From contig CAYJKP010000002.1 in NCBI GenBank assembly GCA_964371245.1, positions 178,306 to 242,305 on the forward strand: DNA of 64,000 bases, given 5' to 3'. The stretch comes from an uncultured Gammaproteobacteria bacterium. Lineage in GTDB: Bacteria; Patescibacteriota; Patescibacteriia; JAHIZJ01. Every line of letters begins with the position of its first letter. Position 1 is the stretch's first letter. Shown here in pieces: positions 11,428 to 52,651 of the stretch. The notes beneath the pieces were generated by a model, which was given only the letters and a program-made list of their open reading frames with translations, did not search any database and was not told the DNA's origin. Made by a program: the position numbers and the translations under genes.

Positions 11428-14400
11428 CTAGATCTTTCTCGTCCTCGGCAGCGAGTGAATGCCGCCCCTACCCTGCCGTTCATGGAGATCCCAGGCATAG
11501 CTGGCTAGCTGCGCCGGATCGATCGGGTCGCCATCAACGTACAAGAACAGGATATTGGCACCATCAACGTGGTGCAGCTGCGCTTGGGCGTACTTGGATG
11601 GCATGCAGCCCTGGGGACAGACGGCCACACCGCCATGGCGCAGGTCCACGATAGTCAGCGCCGCCTCGCCTTCAGGCGCGCCTTCGAAGTACGGTTTGAC
11701 CGCTGCCATAACAGGCTCGATTCTCGTGTGCGTGTTCCGGCCGATCGCGTGAGCGACGACGCGATCCAGGCGCCAGAATACCCACCACTGCAGGAGGGCC
11801 TTCAGGCTGACCGCCACGCGATTGAACTGATCGCGCTTGTGGCCGTGCCCTTGGGTCCAGGTGAGATACTGGATCCATTCGTGAATCGTTGAGCGCCGAA
11901 CCCTGACATTGTGGTCAGCCAGTATTCTGACCACATTGCCATTGGCATGGGGGTCTCTGACCACGTAGATCTCGCCCGAGAGGTGTCCCTGGACTACATT
12001 GGCCTCTCGCTCAGGATCAATCCAGATCGACTGAAACTCACGGACGACTCGGTCCAAGAAACCGGGTAGCCCCCAGTCGCACAGCCAATCTCGGATCTGA
12101 CCCGGCAAGCGCTGGGCTACCGGACGAACCTTCAACTGCTCTACCGCCCGCGCCATCGCCCACTGATACACTCGATCGACGTCAGCCGGGTTCCGGGCTA
12201 TCGGCAGATAGTAGCACCAGAGCTCGTCCAGCAGATCAGCCAGCATGACTGCGGCGCAGGCCTTAAGTCGCAGGTGTTTTCCCACGCCGTCATAGGCATT
12301 GTCCGATGAAGTAGCAAACAGGTGAACTGCTTGCGCTGGATCCAGCTGGGTCAGAATGATCCCGTGCTGCGTCCGGTACGAACCGAAGCGGCAGGGACCA
12401 GTCGTGGCCGGCATGAACCAGTAGAAGTGTTTGATCTCGGGATATTGCGGCAGAACCTCCCGGACCATGTGCTCGAGAACGCCGGTTACGTACATGTACG
12501 GGACGCATTCTTTTCCGGTCGCGTACCGGCCGCGTCCCAGACGAAGTATCTGGTCATTGGTCGGCGGGGCCGCGATTACCCTGATGCCGATTGACGAATA
12601 GACCGCGGTCAGCAAAGGCTCGAGGTTACCGAACTGACAGAGAACCAGCGCTGACTCAGGGTCATCCGGATTAAACGGCTTGCCCGTATCGTGTTCCTGA
12701 AGCAAGGTGAGATCGGAAACCAGCCCGCGCTTATCTCCGTCCCGATAGTGCCGACGCATGGCGTAGACACTCGACTGAATCCGCGTCGTGAAGCCGCCCA
12801 TGCCCGTATGCCCATCGGTTTCGATGATGCAGTAGGGCACGTCGGCAATGTACCGCAGCCAGTGCTCCAGAAAAGCGTCCGGACCGCAGGAATAGCACGT
12901 GATCATCAGGGGATAAACGCCGGGCCGACGGTGCAGGTCAACCACCGCCCTGAGAATCCTCTGCCCCTCGCCCCAGTACACCAGGTCGAGAAAAGGCGTG
13001 GTCGGATCCACCGGGTAGCAGTCAACCGGAATGGCCACGACGCCGCTGCCCTGAATGATCTCTGGAATCTGTCCGTTGATCGCCGGAGACAGCGTGACAT
13101 AGAGCCGACCCAGCACCACGACGGCTGGCACCCGGTGTACCTCGGCATAATCCAGTGCGCGCTGGCCGATCGCCAGACAACGCTCCTGAAAATCCCGCTG
13201 CACACCAACGGCCAGGTCGAACGCCCGAAGGCTCTCGGCCTTGGTACGGCCCAGCTCTCGTCCCATCGAGACGAAAACCTCTCGCACTTCTTCGCTCGCC
13301 TGCCAATTCAGCCCGAACTTGATTACCGGCCTCAGGATTTTCATCCCGGGATCCGATGAATCATTCGGATTTACTCCGTTGATGGCGGCAGCCACCAGCT
13401 CGGGCGTTCCCTGAACCAGCGGGCACGTACTACCGACGTCGCAGCCGCTCTCCCGAGGCAGCAAAACCACCTTGGGAAAGCAGATCAGATCAACGCCAAG
13501 CTCAACCGCCTGGTCAGCCAAGCCATGGGCAACCTTGACCGGCGCGCACATGTCTTTGCCCAAACTGATCTCCTCACCCCGCTTGAGGGTTTCGGTGGTC
13601 GGTTCAAGCACTTTGACATTCACGCCGAGGTTGGCCCAGAACGAGGTGAGCAGGGGCATGAACCGGACGTTGGCCAGCGTCAGGGGAACCGCCACTGTTG
13701 GCTGCCCCTCCCGATCCACCGGCAAGGCCCGGGTCAGTGCCTCGTGAAGTTTGCGCCGTTCGTCAAACGGCTTCGGTGCGTCGGTCGGCAGTCTGTTTCT
13801 GGCGTTCCCTTCGTGCAGCGGACACATGCCGCCCGACTTAACCGTAACCGTGCGATCGCCGATTGACACCTTTGTCCGGTCAATCCGGCACTTGGCGCCG
13901 CAGTCGCGATTGCCGCAAGCGAAGCTTGAGCGCTCGACGACCTTGGCCGCGAGGAACTGCTCGAGATCAAACGGCTGATTCAGGTCAATCTGTTCCTGAC
14001 GGCATTGCTCGAGCGTCAACAAGGCGATGCCAATAGCACCGGTAGCGCCCGGCCGAGGCGGTACGATTACCTTACGACCAGTTACTGCCGCGATCGCCAT
14101 AGGCAAAGCGATGTTGTTCACCGGCATGCCAAGCGCGAAGATGACCTCTTCCAGTCCCAGTTGTCCGACCAGCCGGTTTAACCAGTTGTGGGCAATGAAG
14201 TAGAAGCGGCCGGCAGCGATGTCTTGGACGGTAAAGCCCTCACCCAACGCCCGGTCGGCAATGTCTCCGGAGTAGACAACGCAGGTTTGGCCCATGTCGA
14301 TCGGCTCTCGCGATTCGAGCGCCCATCGGCCAAACTCCTGAATCGTCGCCTTCATCCGCCTCGCGTCATACTCAACTTCGAAACCTGTTCCCGCCGAGCA

Positions 14401-15774
14401 AGCCCGGTTCATGTCTGAAGCGACTGGCATTCCTTTCCGGATATTGACCACCTTGGCATCCTGGCCGCCCAACTCACAGATAGTTACGGATCGGCCATGC
14501 TCTGGATCGTAGTAGCACGCACCCGCGGCATGCGCGGTGATTTCTGTTTCAACCAGCATCTGATTCCGCAAACCGCCAAAGCAAGCCTCAGCCACGTCGT
14601 AGACCGCGCGCCGACCCGAACCGGTAAAACCGAGACTGACAATCTGAACTCGGTCTCCGACCGCGGCCAGCATTTGCCGAACGATCAGTTGCGCAGCGGC
14701 GACCGGATTGCTGTTGGTTGGAACATAGTCGTCCCAGACTCGGCGTCCGGTAGCTACGTCGACCAATGCCGCCTTGGTTCCAGTTGAGCCGGAATCAATG
14801 CCGAGCGCGGCTCGTCCGCTCCAATGTGCCAGATCAAAATCCGGCTCGGTCAGCTTCTGGACCAGATGAGCTGCTGTGGTGAGCGGCTTGAACGTACGGA
14901 TGCTCCGAGACTTCGGACGAACGACAGTTGCTGAATCAGCGGTGTAGCGAGATACCTGGCCAGCCATGACCAAATCAGCCGCGATCAATCCCGCACCCCA
15001 GGCTTCGAAATAGTCAGACTCGGGATGGATTTCAATCGTCGGCTGGCCGATCATCGACTGGAGAGAGTCCATAACCGGCTGATTCTTGGTCACGCCGCCG
15101 ATTACGATCACCCGCCCGTCAATCGAGTTCTTCCTAAACAGGGCGTAAACAGATGCGGCAATGCCTCGAAAATAGCTCTTCAGCAAGACCGCAATGTCTT
15201 CGCCCGCATTGGCTAGGTGAGTGATCTCAGACTGGGCGAACGCCGCACAGCGCGGAACTAACTCAACCACTCGGTCAGTTGCCTGCGCCGCAGTAATCGC
15301 CTCGGGTACGCTCATGTCGGCTCGGGCGCATTGCTTCTCAACCGCTTCACCCGTGCCAGCCGAACACTTTTCAGCCAGCGAATTAGAGTATTCACCACCT
15401 TGGTTGCGCGTGAGCACGCTGTAGCCCCCGGCGCTGATCCGGATCAGGTTGATCGGCTCGTGGCCGACACCCTCAACCGGCGGGAAGAAATGTTCGCAGG
15501 CGCGATTCAGAGCCGCATCTCTGGGAATGTCACTTTGAACTTGTCCCCCGAGAATGCTGCCCAAGCTGCCAGTGGCCACCACCTTGCGAATCCGTGAATG
15601 GTCGAGTCGGGCCCAGATCTGGCCGACCGCCCTTCCCGGATTGCGCTGATGGGGGCACAGCACTTCGTCAGCCTTCACCCAACTTCCATCAGATCGTTCC
15701 AGGACGATCGCCGCCACGGTAGTCCGCCCGACTTTCAGGCCGACCACCTGGTCTCTCTGAGCCATACTGATCAT
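11428..15774 (-). CDS. acyl-CoA dehydratase activase-related protein: two BadF/BadG/BcrA/BcrD (ASKHA) ATPase domains fused to a dehydratase-like DUF2229-type C-terminal region
   Basis: Two activase-type ATPase N-termini (LKVGRTTVAAIVLE and LGIDSGSTGTKAALVD), each with a GGV.KN...GA.G.AL tail. Cys-rich C-terminal half (CGNRDCGAKC...GGMCPLHEG). Start at internal ATG with SD AGAAGGAGG. 1449 aa. Confidence 0.7.
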   Translation of the reverse strand: MISMAQRDQVVGLKVGRTTVAAIVLERSDGSWVKADEVLCPHQRNPGRAVGQIWARLDHSRIRKVVATGSLGSILGGQVQSDIPRDAALNRACEHFFPPVEGVGHEPINLIRISAGGYSVLTRNQGGEYSNSLAEKCSAGTGEAVEKQCARADMSVPEAITAAQATDRVVELVPRCAAFAQSEITHLANAGEDIAVLLKSYFRGIAASVYALFRKNSIDGRVIVIGGVTKNQPVMDSLQSMIGQPTIEIHPESDYFEAWGAGLIAADLVMAGQVSRYTADSATVVRPKSRSIRTFKPLTTAAHLVQKLTEPDFDLAHWSGRAALGIDSGSTGTKAALVDVATGRRVWDDYVPTNSNPVAAAQLIVRQMLAAVGDRVQIVSLGFTGSGRRAVYDVAEACFGGLRNQMLVETEITAHAAGACYYDPEHGRSVTICELGGQDAKVVNIRKGMPVASDMNRACSAGTGFEVEYDARRMKATIQEFGRWALESREPIDMGQTCVVYSGDIADRALGEGFTVQDIAAGRFYFIAHNWLNRLVGQLGLEEVIFALGMPVNNIALPMAIAAVTGRKVIVPPRPGATGAIGIALLTLEQCRQEQIDLNQPFDLEQFLAAKVVERSSFACGNRDCGAKCRIDRTKVSIGDRTVTVKSGGMCPLHEGNARNRLPTDAPKPFDERRKLHEALTRALPVDREGQPTVAVPLTLANVRFMPLLTSFWANLGVNVKVLEPTTETLKRGEEISLGKDMCAPVKVAHGLADQAVELGVDLICFPKVVLLPRESGCDVGSTCPLVQGTPELVAAAINGVNPNDSSDPGMKILRPVIKFGLNWQASEEVREVFVSMGRELGRTKAESLRAFDLAVGVQRDFQERCLAIGQRALDYAEVHRVPAVVVLGRLYVTLSPAINGQIPEIIQGSGVVAIPVDCYPVDPTTPFLDLVYWGEGQRILRAVVDLHRRPGVYPLMITCYSCGPDAFLEHWLRYIADVPYCIIETDGHTGMGGFTTRIQSSVYAMRRHYRDGDKRGLVSDLTLLQEHDTGKPFNPDDPESALVLCQFGNLEPLLTAVYSSIGIRVIAAPPTNDQILRLGRGRYATGKECVPYMYVTGVLEHMVREVLPQYPEIKHFYWFMPATTGPCRFGSYRTQHGIILTQLDPAQAVHLFATSSDNAYDGVGKHLRLKACAAVMLADLLDELWCYYLPIARNPADVDRVYQWAMARAVEQLKVRPVAQRLPGQIRDWLCDWGLPGFLDRVVREFQSIWIDPEREANVVQGHLSGEIYVVRDPHANGNVVRILADHNVRVRRSTIHEWIQYLTWTQGHGHKRDQFNRVAVSLKALLQWWVFWRLDRVVAHAIGRNTHTRIEPVMAAVKPYFEGAPEGEAALTIVDLRHGGVAVCPQGCMPSKYAQAQLHHVDGANILFLYVDGDPIDPAQLASYAWDLHERQGRGGIHSLPRTRKI

Positions 15775-15981
15775 TCGACTGCCTCCTTCTATTCGTGTCC
15801 ACTGATTGCCATACCTACGTAAAAACACGGGTTTTCAAAGACCGTGTTTATCTTTATTTTCAAGCCAATTTGGCTATATACCTTGTACCAGTTTCAGGCC
15901 GGCTTGTCAAAAAGAAAAAACGGCTCAAACCAGGGGGTTTGAGCCAAACTGACTGTGGTGCCACCGAGTGCACCGAAAGGG

Positions 15982-23093: not shown

Positions 23094-24074
23094 ATGACGA
23101 TCAAAAACATTTATGACCTGGCAGTTCGTCTCGGCATTGCCAATGATCTCCGTGGCCAAAAAGCGGTCGTAAAAAAGCTCAATAAAGAACGGGCAAAATA
23201 TGAGGCGCTCCGCGGCGATGACCGGAAGGAATTCGACACCGAACGGCTGGTTAACCCTTTTTCTGATACGCGCATTTACTACGGCAATCCGGAGCAACCG
23301 GTCCGACGCGTCCTGGCTGGCATCGATATCGAAGCGGCTGAAATACTCGTGGCCAAAGAGCTGAGCCGGCAGAAACCCATTGATTTGATTATCTCGCACC
23401 ATCCGATCGGCGTCGGCTTGGCCGGCCTCGACGAAGTGATGCAGATGCAAGCGGAAATTTACGCTCTCTACGGCGTCCCGATCAATATCGGTGAATCATT
23501 GCAGCGCAAGCGAATCAGTGAGGTAGCGCGCTCGATCTCGGCTGAGAACCATAATAAGACCGTCGACGCCGCCCGGCTGATGAATATGCCGTTGATGTCA
23601 ATGCATACGGCGACGGATAATCTGGTCGCAAAATTCCTTGATACGCTCATCAAACGGCAGCGCCAAACATTGGACACCGTTGACGATGTCATGAAATTAT
23701 TAAAAACGATACCGGAATATGCCGCGGCCATGCGCCTAAAAGCCGGCCCGAAACTCTTCGCCGGGCACTTGGATCACTCCCTCGGGAAAATTGCGCTCTC
23801 GGAAGTGACGGGCGGCACTTCGGGCGCGAAAGAAATTTTCGCCGAACTCTCGCGCGCCGGCGTCGGGACGATTGTCGGCATGCACATGTCCGAAGAACAT
23901 AAGAACGAAGCAGAGAAAAATCATCTCAACGTCATCATCGCCGGACATATTTCATCCGACTCGATCGGCTTAAATTTGTTTCTCGATGAACTTGAGAAAA
24001 AAGGCATCGAGATAATTCCCTGCGGCGGTCTGATCCGCATCAGCCGAGTAAAAAAAGTTCAGCGTAAAAAATAA
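23094..24074 (+). CDS. Nif3-like dinuclear metal center protein (YqfO/GTP cyclohydrolase 1 type 2 family)
   Basis: Conserved SHHP motif (LIISHHPIGVG) and a C-terminal metal-binding region with the IIAGHISSD segment of NIF3 family proteins. Confidence 0.7.
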   Translation: MTIKNIYDLAVRLGIANDLRGQKAVVKKLNKERAKYEALRGDDRKEFDTERLVNPFSDTRIYYGNPEQPVRRVLAGIDIEAAEILVAKELSRQKPIDLIISHHPIGVGLAGLDEVMQMQAEIYALYGVPINIGESLQRKRISEVARSISAENHNKTVDAARLMNMPLMSMHTATDNLVAKFLDTLIKRQRQTLDTVDDVMKLLKTIPEYAAAMRLKAGPKLFAGHLDHSLGKIALSEVTGGTSGAKEIFAELSRAGVGTIVGMHMSEEHKNEAEKNHLNVIIAGHISSDSIGLNLFLDELEKKGIEIIPCGGLIRISRVKKVQRKK

Positions 24075-24077
24075 GCC

Positions 24078-25100
24078 ATGCCCAAAGAACGCGTCATTGC
24101 CGGTGAGGAAAAACCGGAAGACGAACGGCTCGACTATACGTTGCGGCCGAAAACCCTGAAAGAATACGTCGGCCAGGACACGATCAAAGCGAACCTGAAG
24201 ATTTTCATGTCCGCGGCCAAAAAACGGAATGAGGCGATTGAGCACGTCCTTCTCCACGGCTCGCCCGGTCTCGGCAAGACAACACTGGCGCATATTATCG
24301 CCCGAGAAATGGGGGTCAATATCCGCGTCACCTCCGGCCCGGCCATTGAGCGGGCCGGCGACCTCGGCTCGATCCTGACGAATTTAGAAGATCGCGATAT
24401 CATCTTCATTGACGAAATACACCGTCTGAACCGGGTGGTCGAGGAAACGCTCTACCCAGCCATGGAGGAATATGGCATCGACATCGTCCTCGGCAAAGGC
24501 TTAGGCGCCCGCACCATGCGCCTGGATCTGCCGAAATTCACGCTCATCGGCGCCACCACACAAATCAGCAAACTATCCTCGCCGCTCCGCGACCGCTTCG
24601 GCAACACTTTCCGGCTTGATTACTATGCCGACAAGGACATCGAGCAGATCCTTCAGCGGTCGGCGAAAATCCTCCGCATCCCGATTGAAGCCGAGGCGGT
24701 GAAAGAAATCGCCCGCCGCAGCCGGAAAACGCCGCGCATCGCCAATCGGCTGTTGAAACGAGTGCGCGATTATGCCGAGATGGAAAACGACGGCCAGGTA
24801 ACCATCGCCTCAACCCAAACCGCGCTCGAAATGCTGGAAATCGACAAATTCGGGCTCGATAAGACTGACCGCCTTATTCTACAAACAATCATCGATAAAT
24901 ACAGCGGCGGCCCGGTTGGCCTGAATACCATTGCCGCGTCGACCTCCGAAGAAATGGACACGATCATGGAGGTCTACGAGCCGTTCCTGCTCCAGCTCGG
25001 CTTCCTGGCACGTACCACTCGCGGCCGGGTCGTGACCAAGCCCGCCTATGACCATCTCAACCGGAAACCGCCGGCCAACCTCCAGGATAAATTAATCTAG
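24078..25100 (+). CDS. ruvB: Holliday junction branch migration DNA helicase RuvB
   Basis: Walker [12 protein letters not shown] and Walker B DEIHRL. AAA+ and winged-helix C-terminus collinear with RuvB. 340 aa. Confidence 0.9.
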
Positions 25101-25101
25101 C

Positions 25102-25680
25102 ATGCCCCGCCTGCTTCTCCACGCCTGCTGCGCGCCGTGCGTGGTCTATCCGATCGAGCGGCTTGAACCCGAATTTGAACTCGGCGTGTTTTTTTATAAT
25201 CCAAACATCCAGCCGGCCGAGGAATATGACAAGCGGCTGTCCGAATTGATCCGCTTTTGCCAAAAACAGAATATGGTTCTTATTGAACGACCGTACGATA
25301 CTGCCGAGTGGTTTGATAAAATAAAAGGTCTCGAGAACGAGCCCGAGCGCGGACGGCGGTGCGATATCTGTTATGAAATGCGCTTAAGAAAAACGGCCGA
25401 GTACGCAAAGAAAAATGGCTTTGCCTGGTTTGGCACCGGACTGACCAGCAGTCCGTATAAAAAGGCGGACAAAATAAACGAGCTCGGCCAGCAATTAGAA
25501 AAAGAGCTGGGTGTGAAATATTACGCCGCTGATTTCAAGAAAAAGGGCGGGGCGCTCCGGGCCGTGGAGCTTTCAAAGAAATACGGTTTTTACCGCCAAA
25601 ATTATTGCGGGTGCGTATTTTCGAAACGGGAACGCGAGACAAAAGACGCAAAACGTAGAGAAGCCTTAAGGCTTCTCTAA
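25102..25680 (+). CDS. queH: epoxyqueuosine reductase QueH (DUF208)
   Basis: N-terminal HACCAPC cluster and C-terminal CGC motif characteristic of QueH. 192 aa. Confidence 0.8.
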   Translation: MPRLLLHACCAPCVVYPIERLEPEFELGVFFYNPNIQPAEEYDKRLSELIRFCQKQNMVLIERPYDTAEWFDKIKGLENEPERGRRCDICYEMRLRKTAEYAKKNGFAWFGTGLTSSPYKKADKINELGQQLEKELGVKYYAADFKKKGGALRAVELSKKYGFYRQNYCGCVFSKRERETKDAKRREALRLL

Positions 25681-35332: not shown

Positions 35333-35560
35333 ATGGAAATCAAAATCCTTGACGGCGCTAACCTCGACATCGACCTCGTTTCCCAGGACAAAACATCGTG
35401 GAAGCAAATGCCGTGCCCCTGGAACGAAGCCGATGGCACAAACGCTCACAAATGCGCGGTCAAAAATGTTTCAATCTGCGAGTATTTTTGCGGCATCCAA
35501 TATCTCGATAACGTGCTGTGCTGCTATCCGAACAAGAATGAATCGGTTGATAATAAGTAG
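35333..35560 (+). CDS. small Cys-rich hypothetical protein (75 aa, 7 Cys)
   Basis: Internal ATG chosen. No signal peptide. CPW...C...C..C....CC pattern. Confidence 0.3.
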   Translation: MEIKILDGANLDIDLVSQDKTSWKQMPCPWNEADGTNAHKCAVKNVSICEYFCGIQYLDNVLCCYPNKNESVDNK

Positions 35561-36233: not shown

Positions 36234-36392
36234 TCAATAAAACATTATCTAATAGTTATAAATGAGGTATTTACGAGAATAAACTAATAAATATTAGTAG
36301 TAATCCATTAATAAGATGGATTTTTTTATGCTAATATTAGTTATTTTTAGATAATATATTTAGATCTATTATTTTTATCCACATTTTTTATC

Positions 36393-36420
36393 TTGACACA
36401 ATATTATATTATGATAGTAT
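36393..36420 (+). promoter_or_regulatory. sigma70-like promoter (TTGACA-16-TAGTAT) at the left end of the low-GC island
   Basis: Near-consensus hexamers within a 150-nt AT-rich spacer. The ORF tool start (TTG) coincides with the -35 box, so the real start is placed at the downstream ATG. Confidence 0.5.
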
Positions 36421-36452
36421 ACATATATATTAATTCATCTAATTTTAACAAC

Positions 36453-37622
36453 ATGACAAACAATCCTCTATTATTCAAACTCCCTGCCATTAGAATTCGG
36501 CAGAGAGAGGAAACAAAACAAGCAATATATACCGCAGTTGTAAAAGCAAAAGATTTCATTACAAGAGAAACTGAAAGGTTTGTAATCGATTATTATAAGA
36601 GAGAGGATGGGATCGAAGATGGCTATCAAAGACCATTGACACCCATCTCAGTAACGAAAATTAAAGATTATATTCTAAAAGAGGTAAAAAATCCTTTATT
36701 GCCTACGAGTATTCTCGTGAATGCGCGAGATAGACTAAAATTTGAAGCAATTAACGACCCATACGGCTACCTGACCATAGATCAACCATTATTTATTATT
36801 GATGGACAACATAGATTCGAAGCCTGGAAACAACTTATGCATGATGAAAAATTAAGAGAAGTTTTAGGTGATTATGAGTTTCCAGTTGTTATCTTGTCGG
36901 GCTTTGAGCAAATAAAAGAAATAGAGCAATTCTATGTAATAAATTCAAGGCAAAAAAGAATAAAAACAGATTTAGCTCAAAGAAATTTCTTAAAGCTTGC
37001 AGGTAATAAAAATACGGAGTCAATAATCCCGGAAAGATCTAAATGGACATTATACGCAACTAAAATAGTGGATATTCTGAATGAGCAAATAAATGATTCG
37101 ATCTGGCACGATAGAATCATATTACCAAGCGACGGGTCTGATTTAAGGAAAAGGAAGATTATTTCACAGGCGTCTTTTGTTTCATCTTTGAAGCCAATGT
37201 TCATTGGTAGAGATGCAATTTTCGCCATCAATGACGATGAACTCCCGAAATTAATAAAAAAGTGGGCAGATCTTGTTAATAGCTATTGGGATACAGTCTA
37301 TAAAATATATCCGGAAGCGATAGATAATCTTCATGATTACTCCTTAATGAAAACGGTTGGGGTCTTCTCGCTACACTTATTATTGGTAAAGATTATAAAT
37401 CAAAAAGGGCTAAAAGACACTATTCTTGATCCGAAAGTACAAACAGACATATTAAAAGAATCAAAAGAAAAAATTGAAGAAGCTAAAAAGCATACGTTTA
37501 AGTTGGATTTCTGGAGATCAAAAGTGTCAGATATTAAAAAGGACAGGGGTGAATATGCCGGATCATATTCATCATCTGTTGGACATAATAAAATTGTAGC
37601 CAGAATATTCCTGGGCTATTAA
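36453..37622 (+). CDS. DGQHR-motif protein (DndB/ParB-like nuclease superfamily), stand-alone
   Basis: Exact FIIDGQHRF motif, the diagnostic core of DndB/DGQHR domains. 389 aa. ~32% GC versus ~55% flanks. No dndACDE or dpdA partners in the window. Confidence 0.7.
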   Translation: MTNNPLLFKLPAIRIRQREETKQAIYTAVVKAKDFITRETERFVIDYYKREDGIEDGYQRPLTPISVTKIKDYILKEVKNPLLPTSILVNARDRLKFEAINDPYGYLTIDQPLFIIDGQHRFEAWKQLMHDEKLREVLGDYEFPVVILSGFEQIKEIEQFYVINSRQKRIKTDLAQRNFLKLAGNKNTESIIPERSKWTLYATKIVDILNEQINDSIWHDRIILPSDGSDLRKRKIISQASFVSSLKPMFIGRDAIFAINDDELPKLIKKWADLVNSYWDTVYKIYPEAIDNLHDYSLMKTVGVFSLHLLLVKIINQKGLKDTILDPKVQTDILKESKEKIEEAKKHTFKLDFWRSKVSDIKKDRGEYAGSYSSSVGHNKIVARIFLGY

Positions 37623-37630
37623 CAAGCCAT

Positions 37631-38272
37631 ATGTTCACCGAAACTAATACATGGTTTTATACGTTGAGTACTATTTCCCAGACTTGCGCTGCTATACTTG
37701 CGCTCGGTGCAACATTCGTTGTATTTAAGCTTGATAAAGTAAAAATAGCAATTGATAATTATAGAGGTAGAGTAGTTCGATTATTACAGCTCTGGCATAG
37801 AGGTGAAAAAGCGCCAGATAAGTTTTTTGATGAGCCTGATGAAAAAATAATAGAACAGTACATAACAAGCGTAATTGATAGCGATGAAGATGTATTTGAC
37901 AGAAACGGTGTTATAGAATTATATGAGCTTTTTGAAGGAGTTCGTTTGAATTATGCTGTATCAAAAGATGCATTTATAATGAGCAACGGAATAAAACTAG
38001 ATCATGAAGAAAGAAAAAGGTGGTGTAACAGAATGGCTCACCTCATGAAAAAAAACGTTATACTAAATAATAGAATATATAATTATTTACGGTTTTCTAT
38101 AATATCTCTAGCGATGAGTATAATAATAAGCGTCGGATTGTTAATAGCGAAACCCTTAAATTTACCTGTTGATAAAAATACTTTAATTGTAATTGTGGCT
38201 TTTGCAATTTTATCAATTGGGTACAGCGCTTATGCTGTTTGGAAAATCGCCAGATCAAAACCTATTCAATAA
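37631..38272 (+). CDS. membrane protein co-transcribed with the DGQHR protein (1 N-terminal and 2 C-terminal TM helices, ~110-aa acidic soluble core)
   Basis: Starts 8 nt after the DGQHR stop. Same low GC. Hydrophobic segments WFYTLSTISQTCAAILALGATFVVF and FSIISLAMSIIISVGLLIA/LIVIVAFAILSIGYSAYAV. Confidence 0.55.
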   Translation: MFTETNTWFYTLSTISQTCAAILALGATFVVFKLDKVKIAIDNYRGRVVRLLQLWHRGEKAPDKFFDEPDEKIIEQYITSVIDSDEDVFDRNGVIELYELFEGVRLNYAVSKDAFIMSNGIKLDHEERKRWCNRMAHLMKKNVILNNRIYNYLRFSIISLAMSIIISVGLLIAKPLNLPVDKNTLIVIVAFAILSIGYSAYAVWKIARSKPIQ

Positions 38273-38299
38273 ATATGTGACCATAAAATACTGTATACA

Positions 38300-38701
38300 A
38301 TGCTCTACCTAAAAAATCCCCACCGGGCGATTAAACACCTCATCGTCATCCCGCTCGTCTCCACCCTGATCATCCCCCTCGCCCTCCTCGACCTCTGGGC
38401 GGAGATCTACCACCGGGTCGCGTTCCCGCTGTACCGCTTCCCCTATCTGAAGCGGCGGGAATACATCAAGCTCGACCGGCACAAGCTGAAATATCTGTCG
38501 TTCTGGGAAAAGTGCTACTGCGCCTATTGCAGCTACGGCAACGGCGTAATCAACTATTGGCTGCGGATGGCCGGCGAGACCGAGCGCTACTGGTGCGGCA
38601 TCAAGCACGCGGCTGACCCCCGCTTCCACGAGCCGGCGCACCAGCGGAAGTTCGCGGAGTATAATAACGAAGAGGATTTTAACCGCAAATATAAGCAATA
38701 A
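38300..38701 (+). CDS. hypothetical protein with N-terminal TM and a CYCAYC...WCG Cys cluster
   Basis: 133-aa ORF of normal GC. No family assigned. Confidence 0.4.
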   Translation: MLYLKNPHRAIKHLIVIPLVSTLIIPLALLDLWAEIYHRVAFPLYRFPYLKRREYIKLDRHKLKYLSFWEKCYCAYCSYGNGVINYWLRMAGETERYWCGIKHAADPRFHEPAHQRKFAEYNNEEDFNRKYKQ

Positions 38702-39308: not shown

Positions 39309-39477
39309 CCGGTAATAAAATATCTCTCGACTAAGTCAGCCGAAGCTTGGCGAAGGCTGACGCATGGAGAGATACGATAAATTAATGTATCTCTCGACCT
39401 TGTTCGAGAAATATTTTTTATTAAATTAAAAAGACCCTGTTTATTACTCGTCGGGTCTCGGTAACGAGTGTGTGCTG

Positions 39478-39963
39478 CTAAACGATGCTCACGCCGGCCT
39501 GGTTGAGCTCGACGACGATGCTCGCCTCGTCGTCCAGGATCTGGCCATCGCACCAGTCGAGGCGGTCCTCGTCACAGCCGGTGCACCGGGCGTAGAGCCG
39601 GTCGGGATTCCCGCCGGGATCGCGCCGCGTCACTTCCCAGACGCGGCCGTGCGCATCCCTGATGCCGTTGCCCAGCGCCAGATCGCGCCATTCCGTCTGG
39701 GTGATTGGCGTCTTCCATACGCGCCCGTCCTCGATCGCCGTCACCGTGAGGCTCACCTCAAGCCTGGTGACCTCGCCGTCGTCGGTGTATTTCGGCTCGA
39801 GCGAAACGCCGCTCTGAACCTGGAGCGTCCGACGGTCCATCGACACCTGGCCTACGCGGACCTGGCCCGCGGGAGCGTTCAGACCGGGATCGTAGACGCG
39901 CCAGATCTCGTGCCCGTTCTCGAAACAGAAGACATCACCGGTCTTGAGCGTGCTTAAGAGCAT
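39478..39963 (-). CDS. hypothetical protein (high-GC island)
   Basis: Start at internal ATG with SD GGAGAAGGAGG. 161 aa. Downstream hairpin terminator. Confidence 0.45.
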   Translation of the reverse strand: MLLSTLKTGDVFCFENGHEIWRVYDPGLNAPAGQVRVGQVSMDRRTLQVQSGVSLEPKYTDDGEVTRLEVSLTVTAIEDGRVWKTPITQTEWRDLALGNGIRDAHGRVWEVTRRDPGGNPDRLYARCTGCDEDRLDWCDGQILDDEASIVVELNQAGVSIV

Positions 39964-40118
39964 GAGGTTCCTCCTTCTCCGTGGACATTCATGGCCATGA
40001 GTGCATCGTGACAACAACCGCCCATACTAGCAAATTCCCGCGAATTGTCAAGGTGGCTATCTGGAGCGCCGCTTCAAAAAATGCGATAAAGCGCCGCCTA
40101 TAAATACGTTTATACCAC

Positions 40119-50206: not shown

Positions 50207-52651
50207 ATGGTAGACAACCTCGGAAAAATAACAATTCGCAACATCACCGATGAAATGCAGGAGTCGTACCTCGACTATGCCATGTCGGTGATTGTGGCTC
50301 GTGCTTTGCCCGATGTCCGTGACGGCTTCAAACCTGTCCACCGCCGCATCTTGTATGCCATGTGGAATATTGGCTTGAAACCAGGGTCAAAATATCGAAA
50401 ATCCGCCACCGTCGTCGGCGAGGTACTCGGCAAATACCATCCGCACGGCGATTTAGCCGTCTACGACGCGATGGTCCGAATGGCCCAAACGTTTTCGCTG
50501 CGCTATCCCCTGGTCGATGGCCAGGGCAATTTTGGTTCAATCGACGGCGACAGCGCTGCCGCCCATCGATACACTGAGGCGCGGCTGGCAAAAATCTCCG
50601 AGGAAATTCTTGCCAATATTGAAAAGAATACTGTTGATTTCATCCCGAATTATGACGGCTCCCAGCAAGAACCGCAGGTGCTGCCGGCCCGGCTGCCCAA
50701 TTTATTGCTGAACGGAACCATGGGTATCGCGGTCGGCATGGCCACAAATATTCCACCGCACAATCTCGGCGAAGTCGCCGATGGCCTGATCCACCTGATC
50801 GACCAGCCAAATAGCTCGGTCGAGGATTTGATGAAATTCATCAAGGGACCGGATTTTCCGACTGGCGCGCAAATCTTTGATATCAACGAAATCAAACAGG
50901 CTTACGCGACCGGCCGAGGCAGCATCGTGATGCGGGCGAAGAGTGAGATCGTCGAAGAACATGGAAAATTCAAAATCATTATCACCGAAATACCCTATCA
51001 GGTAAACAAAGCGCAGCTGCTTGAGCATATCGCCCAATTGGTGAATGACAAGAAGATCGACGGGATCCGCGATCTGCGCGACGAATCGGACAAGGACGGC
51101 ATTCGAATCGTCATCGAGCTGAAGAAAGAGGCCTATCCGAAGAAAACACTCAACCGGCTCTACACGCTCACCCAGCTCCAAGATGCGTTTCATGTAAATA
51201 TGCTGGCGCTCGTTGACGGCATCCAGCCGCGCGTTTTGACCCTCAAAATGATCCTCGAAGAATATCTGAAACACCAGCAGGTCGTGACGCGGCGCTATCT
51301 CACCTATGATCTCGATCGGGCTAAAGAGCGGGCGCACGTCCTGGAAGGTTTGAAAATCGCCCTGAAACATCTCGACGCGGTTATCGCCACCATTAAGAAA
51401 TCAAATGATCGTGAGGAAGCAAAGGTCAATTTAATAAAGCGGTTTAAATTAACCGAAATTCAGAGCGTGGCTATCCTCGAGATGAAGCTCTCCCAGCTGG
51501 CCAATCTGGAACAGCAAAAGATCCTCGACGAGCTGAAGGAAAAACTGAAGTTAATCGATGAGTTAAAGGGCCTGCTCGCCTCCCCGAAGAAAATTCTCGG
51601 CTTGATCAAAAAAGACCTTCTTCACATGAAGGAAAAATACGACAACAAGCGACGGACCGAGGTCTTCCCGAATCCGGTCGATAAATTCACGCAGGAAGAT
51701 CTGATTCCGAATATTGCCACGATCGTCATGAGCACCCGTGACGGTTATATCAAACGCGTCGAGCCGGAGTCGTTCCGGACCCAGGGCCGGGGTGGCAAAG
51801 GCGTCATCGGTCTGACGACCAAAGAAGAGGATGCCGTCGAACATTTCTTTACCACCACTACGCACGCCAACCTTTTGTTCTTCACCACGCGGGGTCGCGT
51901 TTTCCAATTAAAAACCTATGACATCCCACAGGCCAGCCGGACCGCCCGCGGCCAGGCGATCGTGAATTTCCTGCAGCTCCCGAGCCACGAAAAGGTTTCA
52001 ATCATCCTGCCCATCCCGGAATTAAAAGGCTCCCAATACCTGATGATGATTACCCGCAATGGCGTTATCAAGAAAGTCGATATTAAAGATTTTGAAAACG
52101 TCCGCCGCTCCGGCTTGATCGCCATCCGGCTGAAGACCAACGACACGCTCGAATGGGTCAAGCCGACGACCGGTAGCGATAATATCGTCTTGGTCAGCCG
52201 CGAGGGGCAGGCGATTCAATTCCGCGAAAAGGAAGTTCGCGCCATGGGACGCAGCGCCGCCGGCGTCCGCGGCATCCGTCTAAAAGGCACGGACGAGGTC
52301 TGCGGCATGGCGATTATTTCGCAAGGCAAGGTGCTCCCGGAAATGCAGCTTCTCGTCGTGATGGAAAACGGCCATGGCAAGCGTTCTGGACTGAAGAATT
52401 ACAAAGTCCAAGGCCGCGGCGGTACTGGTATAAAAACAGCCAAGATAACGACGAAAACAGGTAAAATCGTCTCAGCGTTCGTCGTGAACTCAAAACTTGA
52501 AAAGGAAGACCTGATCATTATTTCCGGTAAGGGACAGGTGATCCGCTTACCGATCAAGTCTGTTTCGGTACTCGGTCGGGCCACCCAAGGCGTCCGTCTA
52601 ATGCGCTTCTCGGAAACGTCAGATAAAGTCGCCTCCGTAACCTTCATTTAA
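50207..52651 (+). CDS. gyrA: DNA gyrase subunit A
   Basis: N-terminal [14 protein letters not shown] and the active-site Tyr region. The QRDR-region motif ([17 protein letters not shown]) is collinear with GyrA over 814 aa, including the C-terminal beta-pinwheel repeats. Confidence 0.95.

Follow-up and report, generated by a model that had tools for sequence, protein, structure and literature searches.

An apparently self-regulated DGQHR cassette joined to a membrane-protein gene in a foreign island of a Patescibacteria bacterium

A 64,000-nt stretch of contig CAYJKP010000002.1 (positions 178,306 to 242,305; assembly GCA_964371245.1), hereafter the window, carries a ~2-kb island of low-GC DNA in which a gene for a stand-alone DGQHR-domain protein (gene 1) is followed at once by a gene for a protein with three transmembrane (TM) segments (gene 2). 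The explanation favoured here, to which a probability of roughly 0.45 is given, is that of a mobile and probably self-regulated DGQHR cassette, encoding a nucleoside triphosphate (NTP) switch of the DndB/DpdB/KorB kind, that drives a membrane-protein cargo of plausibly conflict-related function. What is new is the cassette, a DGQHR gene that stands alone and is apparently self-regulated, with a conserved cis-site and promoter. The joined pair is a mosaic of a single lineage and not an established or recurrent two-gene defence system.

Gene 1 encodes a DGQHR protein of a distinct clade

An earlier note on this DNA had described gene 1 as DGQHR/ParB-like from the sequence FIIDGQHRF. This assignment was upheld, as the product of gene 1 contains that sequence and scored above the curated cut-offs of TIGR03187 DGQHR (91.8 versus 58.85 bits) and of Pfam DndB PF14072 (56.8 versus 29.1). 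The three motifs of the DGQHR family, a QR pair, the DGQHR pentapeptide and FxxxN (PMC4619093), were located as GYQR (57-60), DGQHR (117-121) and FYVIN (160-164, F160-N164) and were invariant in 30 clade members. The clade consists of ~64 clusters at 90% identity with members of ~380-400 aa that are 37-81% identical, and its alignment has 38 invariant columns, including GYQR, DGQHR and F..N; gene 1 itself is intact. The ATG at 36453 agrees with the N-termini of 29 relatives, and the public gene calls starting at 36411 (403 aa) are probably too long.

The architecture of gene 1 was predicted to consist of an N-terminal NTP-binding domain of the ParB/Srx fold and a C-terminal helical domain. The N-terminal domain showed structural similarity to solved ParB/Srx proteins, with KorB, ParB-N and PadC as best matches; the best Foldseek hit in the PDB was to ParB-N (E 0.024), and a sequence profile built from the clade had no match among PDB entries. 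The clade profile was aligned to bona fide DpdB by hhalign with a probability of 98.9% over 279 columns. Gene 1 scored below the equivalog cut-offs for DpdB (NF041060, 61.2 versus 300) and DGQHR_dnd_1 (TIGR04172, 33 versus 450 bits), and matched the PADLOC DndB model with an E value of 8.4e-4. The protein is neither DndB nor DpdB and represents a distinct clade of DGQHR proteins with the ParB fold.

As the earlier note had stated, partners from the Dnd (phosphorothioation) or Dpd (7-deazaguanine) DNA-modification clusters are lacking in the 64 kb. PADLOC found no Dnd/Dpd component among 60 window open reading frames (ORFs), and tblastn with DpdA, D, F, G, H, J and K from pPOL9A (DpdC lay outside the query set) found nothing in the window or in ~85 related loci. 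No Dnd/Dpd gene was among the 25 top neighbour families listed for 16 clade loci, and no strong TGT/DpdA-type match turned up in the window scans. The phage, plasmid and IMG/VR collections yielded only distant DGQHR proteins (24-30% identity).

A conserved palindrome and promoter precede gene 1

Gene 1 is preceded by an AT-rich spacer of 219 nt (17.4% GC) with a predicted 5' untranslated region of ~30 nt, which replaces the 150-nt AT-rich leader described earlier. Within the spacer lies a palindrome resembling an operator or parS site (Table 1). Its core, TAGATCTA, occurs as a single copy in the window, and a half-site, TTTAGAT, is located at 36344-36350. Twelve of the 17 clade loci, with proteins 32-81% identical to gene 1, have the core at most 220 nt ahead of the DGQHR start codon: the window, L009, L010, L014, L016, L030, L032 (two copies), L033, L094, L095, L096 and L097. 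In 20000 composition-matched shuffles, the mean number of loci with the core upstream was 0.14 and the maximum was 4. Seventeen copies were present in 235 kb of clade loci, 13 of them in DGQHR upstream regions, and in distant DGQHR clades the core was present in 2 of 47 loci. The consensus of the palindrome is ATTTAGATCTAAA, and AGATCT and GATC are contained in its core.

In most clade loci a TTGAC box lies next to the palindrome, which starts 19, 21, 24 or 32 nt before the box or, in L096, L016 and L033, stands just downstream of it. L011 and L013, members of a subclade linked to 5-methylcytosine (m5C) methylases, have only the half-site TTTAGAT, abutting the -35 box. Alignment of the upstream regions of the three closest relatives, with L009 and L094 among them, showed a conserved ATTTAGATCTA, followed by TCTTGACA and then the -10 box. 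The TTGACA-16-TAGTAT promoter that had been assigned to the island was recovered as well. A consensus scan alone did not exceed chance (15 sites versus 12.0 +/- 3.6), and the promoter was accepted because it is conserved in relatives. These results indicate that the palindrome and the DGQHR protein form a pair that travels together.

Upstream of the palindrome, a hairpin (Table 1) looks like a weak terminator of the preceding HAD gene; it was missing from the terminator scan list because it contains only two G-C pairs. An Rfam search of the leader returned no RNA family, and the z score of the leader fold was -0.98.

The gene pair is a mosaic of two cassettes

When compared with L009/L094, the window was similar at the nucleotide level from 36323/36356 to exactly the stop codon of gene 1 (37622). 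In comparisons with L091, L083 and L092, which carry gene 2 relatives, similarity covered the ORF only, from 37634 to 38266-38271. Because similarity to relatives breaks off where gene 1 stops and begins again where gene 2 starts, the island is, on these alignments, a mosaic of two cassettes. Cassette A (~36323-37622) contains the upstream region and gene 1, cassette B (37631-38272) consists of nothing but the gene 2 ORF, and the two meet in an 8-nt join. No promoter travels with gene 2, which would therefore be expressed from the promoter of gene 1 or by read-through. The co-transcription proposed earlier thus appears likely from the 8-nt gap and from the lack of a promoter belonging to gene 2.

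The earlier note had further proposed that the two genes constitute a module. When gene 2 was compared by tblastn with every locus that has a gene 1 relative, all matches came from the organism of the window (L001-L008). A profile built from 64 sequences of the gene 2 family had no match among the complete ORF sets of ~75 DGQHR loci, although E values up to 10 were admitted. A DGQHR gene was likewise absent from each of the seven independent contexts in which gene 2 relatives (32-70% identity) occur. Since gene 2 relatives are absent from these DGQHR loci and gene 1 relatives from the gene 2 loci, the pair is not a conserved module. A lack of synteny in other genomes was among the outcomes that the earlier note had itself named as refuting its proposal, and the proposal of a conserved module was given up.

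Table 1. Location of the island, of the elements within it and of methyltransferase (MTase) or restriction-modification (R-M) modules in related loci. Positions without a locus prefix refer to the window.
Feature	Position	Strand	Basis or remarks
Foreign low-GC island	36234..38299	.	between the HAD/NT5C-like gene and a 133-aa gene, inside a + strand gene run
Terminator-like hairpin AATCCATT-AATAA-GATGGATT, then T-run	36302..36329	+	sequence, minimum-free-energy fold
Operator/parS-like palindrome TTTAGATCTATT	36359..36370	.	core TAGATCTA at 36361-36368, conserved in the clade
Sigma-70-like promoter TTGACA-16 nt (TG-extended)-TAGTAT	36393..36420	+	best-scoring site, 10/12; conserved in L009, L094
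Gene 1, stand-alone DGQHR-domain protein, 389 aa	36453..37622	+	HMM scores and motifs
Gene 2, promoterless ORF, 213 aa, 3 TM segments	37631..38272	+	undescribed family
MTase/R-M modules with DGQHR gene	L095:6218-8291, L032:4500-6579, L097:2832-4844, L011:2249-4423, L012:1784-4140, L013:3905-6085		

Neighbours of gene 1 relatives are variable

The unit formed by cassette A recurs in many genomes with different neighbours. Downstream of the DGQHR gene, L009 (81% identity) has a Hypoth_Ymh/HEPN protein (PF09509, E 1.8e-30; PADLOC PD-Lambda-3_B, 1.7e-13, and Aga_HEPN, 6e-14), L094 (77%) an unrelated TM protein, L095 (59%) an EcoRI-like methylase followed by GmrSD_N-HNH, L096 (57%) a helix-turn-helix (HTH) protein, L030 (51%) a GHKL ATPase and L018 an HNH protein. 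Multi-TM downstream partners were rare among ~60 DGQHR loci of all clades, being found in the window, L094 and L010.

DNA MTase or R-M genes adjoin the DGQHR gene in six of the 17 clade loci, a small sample without a genome-wide background. Homologous m5C MTases (49-56% mutual identity) are present in L097, where a BglII-family endonuclease lies beside the MTase, and in L011, L012 and L013, in which a conserved unannotated 280-aa gene occurs on either side of the DGQHR gene. A homologous pair of EcoRI-like MTase and GmrSD_N-HNH is located downstream of the DGQHR gene in L095 and upstream of it in L032. That the linkage is kept despite rearrangement argues for a function or a co-mobility of the DGQHR and MTase genes. 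No MTase homologue was found in the window.

The palindrome of L097 contains AGATCT, the recognition sequence of BglII. Conserved downstream partners were seen in other DGQHR clades, in contrast to the variable slot of the window's clade: a ~295-aa gene at a gap of 0-8 nt in L020-L024 (match ~8001; Vibrionaceae, Idiomarina, Alteromonadaceae, Psychromonas), and a downstream gene of 170-181 aa with a 4-nt overlap with the DGQHR gene in L050, L051 and L055.

Gene 2 belongs to a widespread family of three-TM proteins

The earlier placement of gene 2, starting 8 nt past the gene 1 stop, and its three TM segments were confirmed. Hydrophobic segments were found at ~8-32, 149-173 and 184-205, and the AlphaFold model (pLDDT 82.8) has long helices at 3-55, 125-173 and 182-208 with a small alpha/beta insert. 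The middle region is not the acidic ~110-aa core described earlier; its charges balance (21 K/R, 21 D/E), and only residues ~62-98 form an acidic patch. K/R residues are concentrated behind TM1 and at the C-terminus, which by the positive-inside rule should place the middle domain (~115 aa) in the cytoplasm.

In a family profile search, 430 representatives of clusters formed at 50% identity passed E<=1e-3, and 104 passed E<=1e-10. The best matches were mostly 165-230 aa long, and many aligned along almost all of their length. The conserved part of the family is TM1 (W8, L12, S13, Q17 and F29). Neither gene 2 nor its family had a consistent match in Pfam, NCBIfam or PADLOC, and no relatives were present in the phage, plasmid and IMG/VR collections. 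Gene 2 shares a C-terminal pair of TM helices with the two-TM SLATT effectors. A SLATT identity was nonetheless rejected, as the score was 17.4 against a cut-off of 41 (NF033634, residues 139-201) and the match, regarded as an artefact of hydrophobic segments, appeared in only one of 64 family members.

Two to three of the seven gene 2 contexts include defence genes, again a small sample without a genome-wide background. In L084 and L085 the gene 2 relative lies behind a 711-aa Dsr1-C-terminal-like gene (E 8e-17) with an 8-nt overlap, and in L091 it precedes a SoFic-like gene (E 2e-38). Flanking genes of the window and of the gene 2 loci share only a weak Ser-hydrolase similarity. The full gene order of L084:1-7302 and L085:1-5894 is type III REase-like helicase, CHAT protease, 284-aa gene, 711-aa Dsr1-C-terminal-like gene, gene 2 relative and 213-aa gene, with the 284-aa and 711-aa genes fused in L085 (1021 aa); this cluster is a candidate undescribed defence operon.

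Composition and setting of the island

The GC content of the island was 31.8%, versus 53.0% in the left flank, 50.1% in the right flank and 53.1% in the whole window, and the island is the lowest-GC 2-kb segment within the 64 kb. GC content at third codon positions (GC3) was 0.30 in gene 1 and 0.25 in gene 2, and 0.63-0.83 in adjacent genes. This difference in composition from the flanks identifies the island as foreign DNA acquired horizontally, as the earlier note had concluded. Its left edge is the stop of the HAD gene (36233) and its right edge lies 27 nt ahead of the next gene (38300). A tRNA, an integrase and flanking repeats were sought at the island ends and none was found.

The host is a tiny-genome Patescibacteria (Kerfeldbacteria-like) bacterium, with the insertion in its chromosome. 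GyrA of the window (50207-52651) is 81% identical to proteins of 'Patescibacteria group bacterium' and ~70% identical to many Candidatus Kerfeldbacteria proteins, and several ENA and Logan samples yielded assemblies of the same locus, the longest contig measuring 1.18 Mb. Ordinary genes surround the island (Wzy_C, glycosyltransferase, GDSL lipase, Ser-hydrolase, cupin and inositol monophosphatase). A joint function of the upstream HAD and Cys-rich genes with the pair had also been suggested. This was not sustained; both genes have the composition of the host, lie beyond the terminator-like hairpin and never accompany gene 1 relatives. The Cys-rich protein (35333-35560; 75 aa, GC3 0.63) has six Cys rather than the seven counted earlier, and among the loci examined was found only in this organism.

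Contigs from independent assemblies of the same organism (L004, L005, L006, L007 and L008) repeatedly end within gene 1, at 37196, 37254, 37264 and 37269, and at the right island edge, at 38303 (twice) and 38338; one of these contigs has 12x coverage. These recurrent breaks may reflect strain variants with a different cassette, or poor coverage of AT-rich DNA.

Some further features of the window were recorded. A high-GC islet (67-68% GC) at 39450-39900, 1.2 kb downstream of the island, has overlapping ORFs at 39478-40017 (-, 179 aa) and 39472-39957 (+, 161 aa) with no Pfam match. An ORF of 1466 aa at 11428-15828 (-) would be unusually large for a ~1 Mb genome and is the probable source of the BcrAD_BadFG and DUF2229 (CoA-enzyme activase) matches in the window scan. 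PADLOC gave single matches to mad3 (E 3e-30), mad8, CARF_LolE_TM, AriA, IetA and ATPase-Toprim among the 60 ORFs, which probably represent generic ATPase, ABC or permease similarity. RuvB (24078-25100) adjoins QueH (25102-25680) in the region 23094-25680, and a QueA (Queuosine_synth) match lies somewhere in the window; these tRNA-queuosine genes have a housekeeping arrangement and no link to the DGQHR gene.

Discussion

In the favoured explanation, cassette A is a self-contained unit composed of the palindromic site TTTAGATCTA, a conserved sigma-70-like promoter and the DGQHR protein, to which cassette B, a three-TM ORF of a separate and widespread family, is joined 8 nt behind gene 1. The DGQHR protein would act as an NTP-dependent DNA-binding switch of the DndB/DpdB/KorB kind, bind the palindrome beside its own promoter and autoregulate its transcript, and gene 2, having no promoter, would be expressed as cargo under gene 1 control. 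Most plausibly the cargo would be a conflict-type effector, for defence or addiction, acting at the membrane; this is suggested by the genes in the same downstream slot of relatives (Ymh/HEPN, TM protein, GHKL, HNH, and MTase with GmrSD_N-HNH). We infer palindrome binding, autoregulation, NTPase activity and any defence role of gene 2.

Three published parallels bear on such a switch. DndB binds palindromes in its promoter and so shuts down its own operon (PMC4507180), and gene 1 resembles it in the DGQHR domain with its QR, DGQHR and FxxxN motifs and in the palindrome, putatively bound, at its own promoter, which is conserved beside the promoter in gene 1 relatives. It differs from DndB in the low TIGR04172 score, in having no dndCDE nearby and in its operator, TACGN10CGTA for DndB versus TTTAGATCTAAA for the gene 1 clade; moreover, the genes that gene 1 relatives would regulate vary and are not Dnd genes. 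DpdB, a dimeric ATPase stimulated by DNA, assists a DNA-modifying enzyme (PMC10164549), and a DndB-like protein binds both ATP and GTP (bioRxiv 10.1101/2025.10.10.680097). With DpdB, gene 1 has the two-domain architecture in common, and the aid given by DpdB to a modifying enzyme has its parallel in the repeated linkage of the gene 1 clade to DNA MTases. Gene 1 is set apart from DpdB by its NF041060 score, by the absence of DpdA or DpdD-K from its surroundings and of a modifying enzyme from the window, and by DGQHR in place of the DGQQR highlighted for DpdB (PMC10164549).

The arrangement of a constant gene with a variable, effector-type gene (TM, HEPN/Ymh, HNH or GHKL) close behind it is also that of modular defence operons such as PD-Lambda-3 and the DSR1 type, and for the latter the likeness extends to the gene 2 relative that stands directly behind a Dsr1-C-terminal-like gene. 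The comparison has its limits, since neither gene of the window matches such a PADLOC model, apart from the distant DpdB and DndB matches of gene 1, and some members of the gene 1 clade have no partner.

Several observations weigh against the favoured explanation. The pairing is confined to this organism among the loci examined, which weakens the case for a joint function of the two proteins. In gene 1, neither an HTH nor any other element for reading DNA was recognised, and the palindrome could be bound by another factor. The gene 1 relatives of L014 and L015 are solitary and lie beside housekeeping genes, and several gene 2 relatives are found among ordinary small enzymes (HAD, cupin, Ser-hydrolase and flavodoxin). 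Each family has some defence-type neighbours elsewhere; in the window itself, the genes flanking the island are non-defence.

The best-placed alternative is the chance juxtaposition, or joint transfer, of two unrelated mobile genes, with a co-transcription that has no functional meaning; gene 1 would be an orphan regulator or helper that lost the MTase/R-M module of its clade, and gene 2 would be independent of it. This account, which is possible although we find it doubtful, would fit a pair that is syntenic nowhere else, the occurrence of both families alone in other places, and the tie between gene 1 relatives and DNA MTases in rearranged orders when the window has no MTase homologue. However, one acquisition of an already joined pair accounts more simply for a single 2-kb insert of uniform composition whose two genes meet at an 8-nt junction. 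Gene 2 also lacks its own promoter here, and the slot behind gene 1 relatives has repeatedly been filled by tightly spaced effector-like genes.

Under a second alternative, the two genes would be a dedicated abortive-infection pair, in which the DGQHR protein senses or nicks invading DNA and activates a cognate membrane effector, leading to membrane collapse. The tight operon in a foreign island and the invariant polar face of TM1 in the gene 2 family (W8, S13 and Q17) speak for it, as does PD-Lambda-3, for which abortive infection has been demonstrated experimentally (PMC13190303) and whose B component resembles the partner in L009. A dedicated pair is nevertheless unlikely, given that it is conserved in no other locus, that multi-TM partners are so rare downstream of DGQHR genes and that gene 2 has no PADLOC match, its SLATT match being due to chance; nor do the phage and plasmid collections hold members of either family that would hint at a target.

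A role outside defence was also considered, with a ParB-like protein and a parS-like site serving DNA organisation, segregation or membrane tethering and the three-TM protein as an anchor. The ParB/Srx fold, with its best structural matches to KorB, ParB-N and PadC, points in this direction, as does a single conserved palindrome adjoining the gene, as in parS-parB arrangements. Its arms, TTTAG...CTAAA, are the same as those of the RK2 KorB and KorA operators TTTAGCGGCTAAA and TTTAGCTAAA (PMC11790492), which may be coincidence. In contrast to the KorB/ParB CTPase switches, gene 1 shows no relation to them at the sequence level and no recognisable HTH, and no ParA, KorA or TrbA partner was found. 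The loci are chromosomal, patchy and foreign in composition, the membrane partner is not conserved, and the neighbours are R-M or nuclease genes rather than partition genes, all of which make this role very unlikely.

Descent from a decayed Dnd or Dpd cluster, an outcome the earlier note had allowed for and one that the DGQHR domain common to DndB and DpdB and the presence of QueA and QueH in the window might suggest, was rejected because Dnd/Dpd proteins were undetected in the window, and DpdA/DpdD-K in ~85 related loci, and because gene 1 scores far below the equivalog cut-offs, is intact and belongs to a well-conserved family, QueH standing in its housekeeping place beside ruvB ~11 kb away.

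The favoured explanation of a mobile DGQHR cassette with membrane-protein cargo could be extended to the clade as a whole. The DGQHR clade may be the constant driver of undescribed modular conflict cassettes that are common in Patescibacteria and other uncultured bacteria. A mobile unit of palindrome, promoter and ParB-like NTP switch would capture promoterless effector or modification genes (3-TM, HEPN/Ymh, GHKL, HNH and MTase) and control their expression or activity, possibly in response to the modification state of the AGATCT/GATC-containing site, and the window would represent the membrane-effector version. This extension is speculative and on balance rather unlikely.

To our knowledge, DGQHR proteins have been described solely as accessory components of two large DNA-modification systems, Dnd and Dpd. 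The clade of gene 1 stands alone, and its members come for the most part from uncultured bacteria, among them several lineages of Patescibacteria. Should the protein bind the palindrome, the cassette would offer a compact model of ParB-fold NTP switches as gene regulators outside chromosome segregation, and a handle on the swappable partner genes, including the undescribed 430-cluster family of three-TM proteins.

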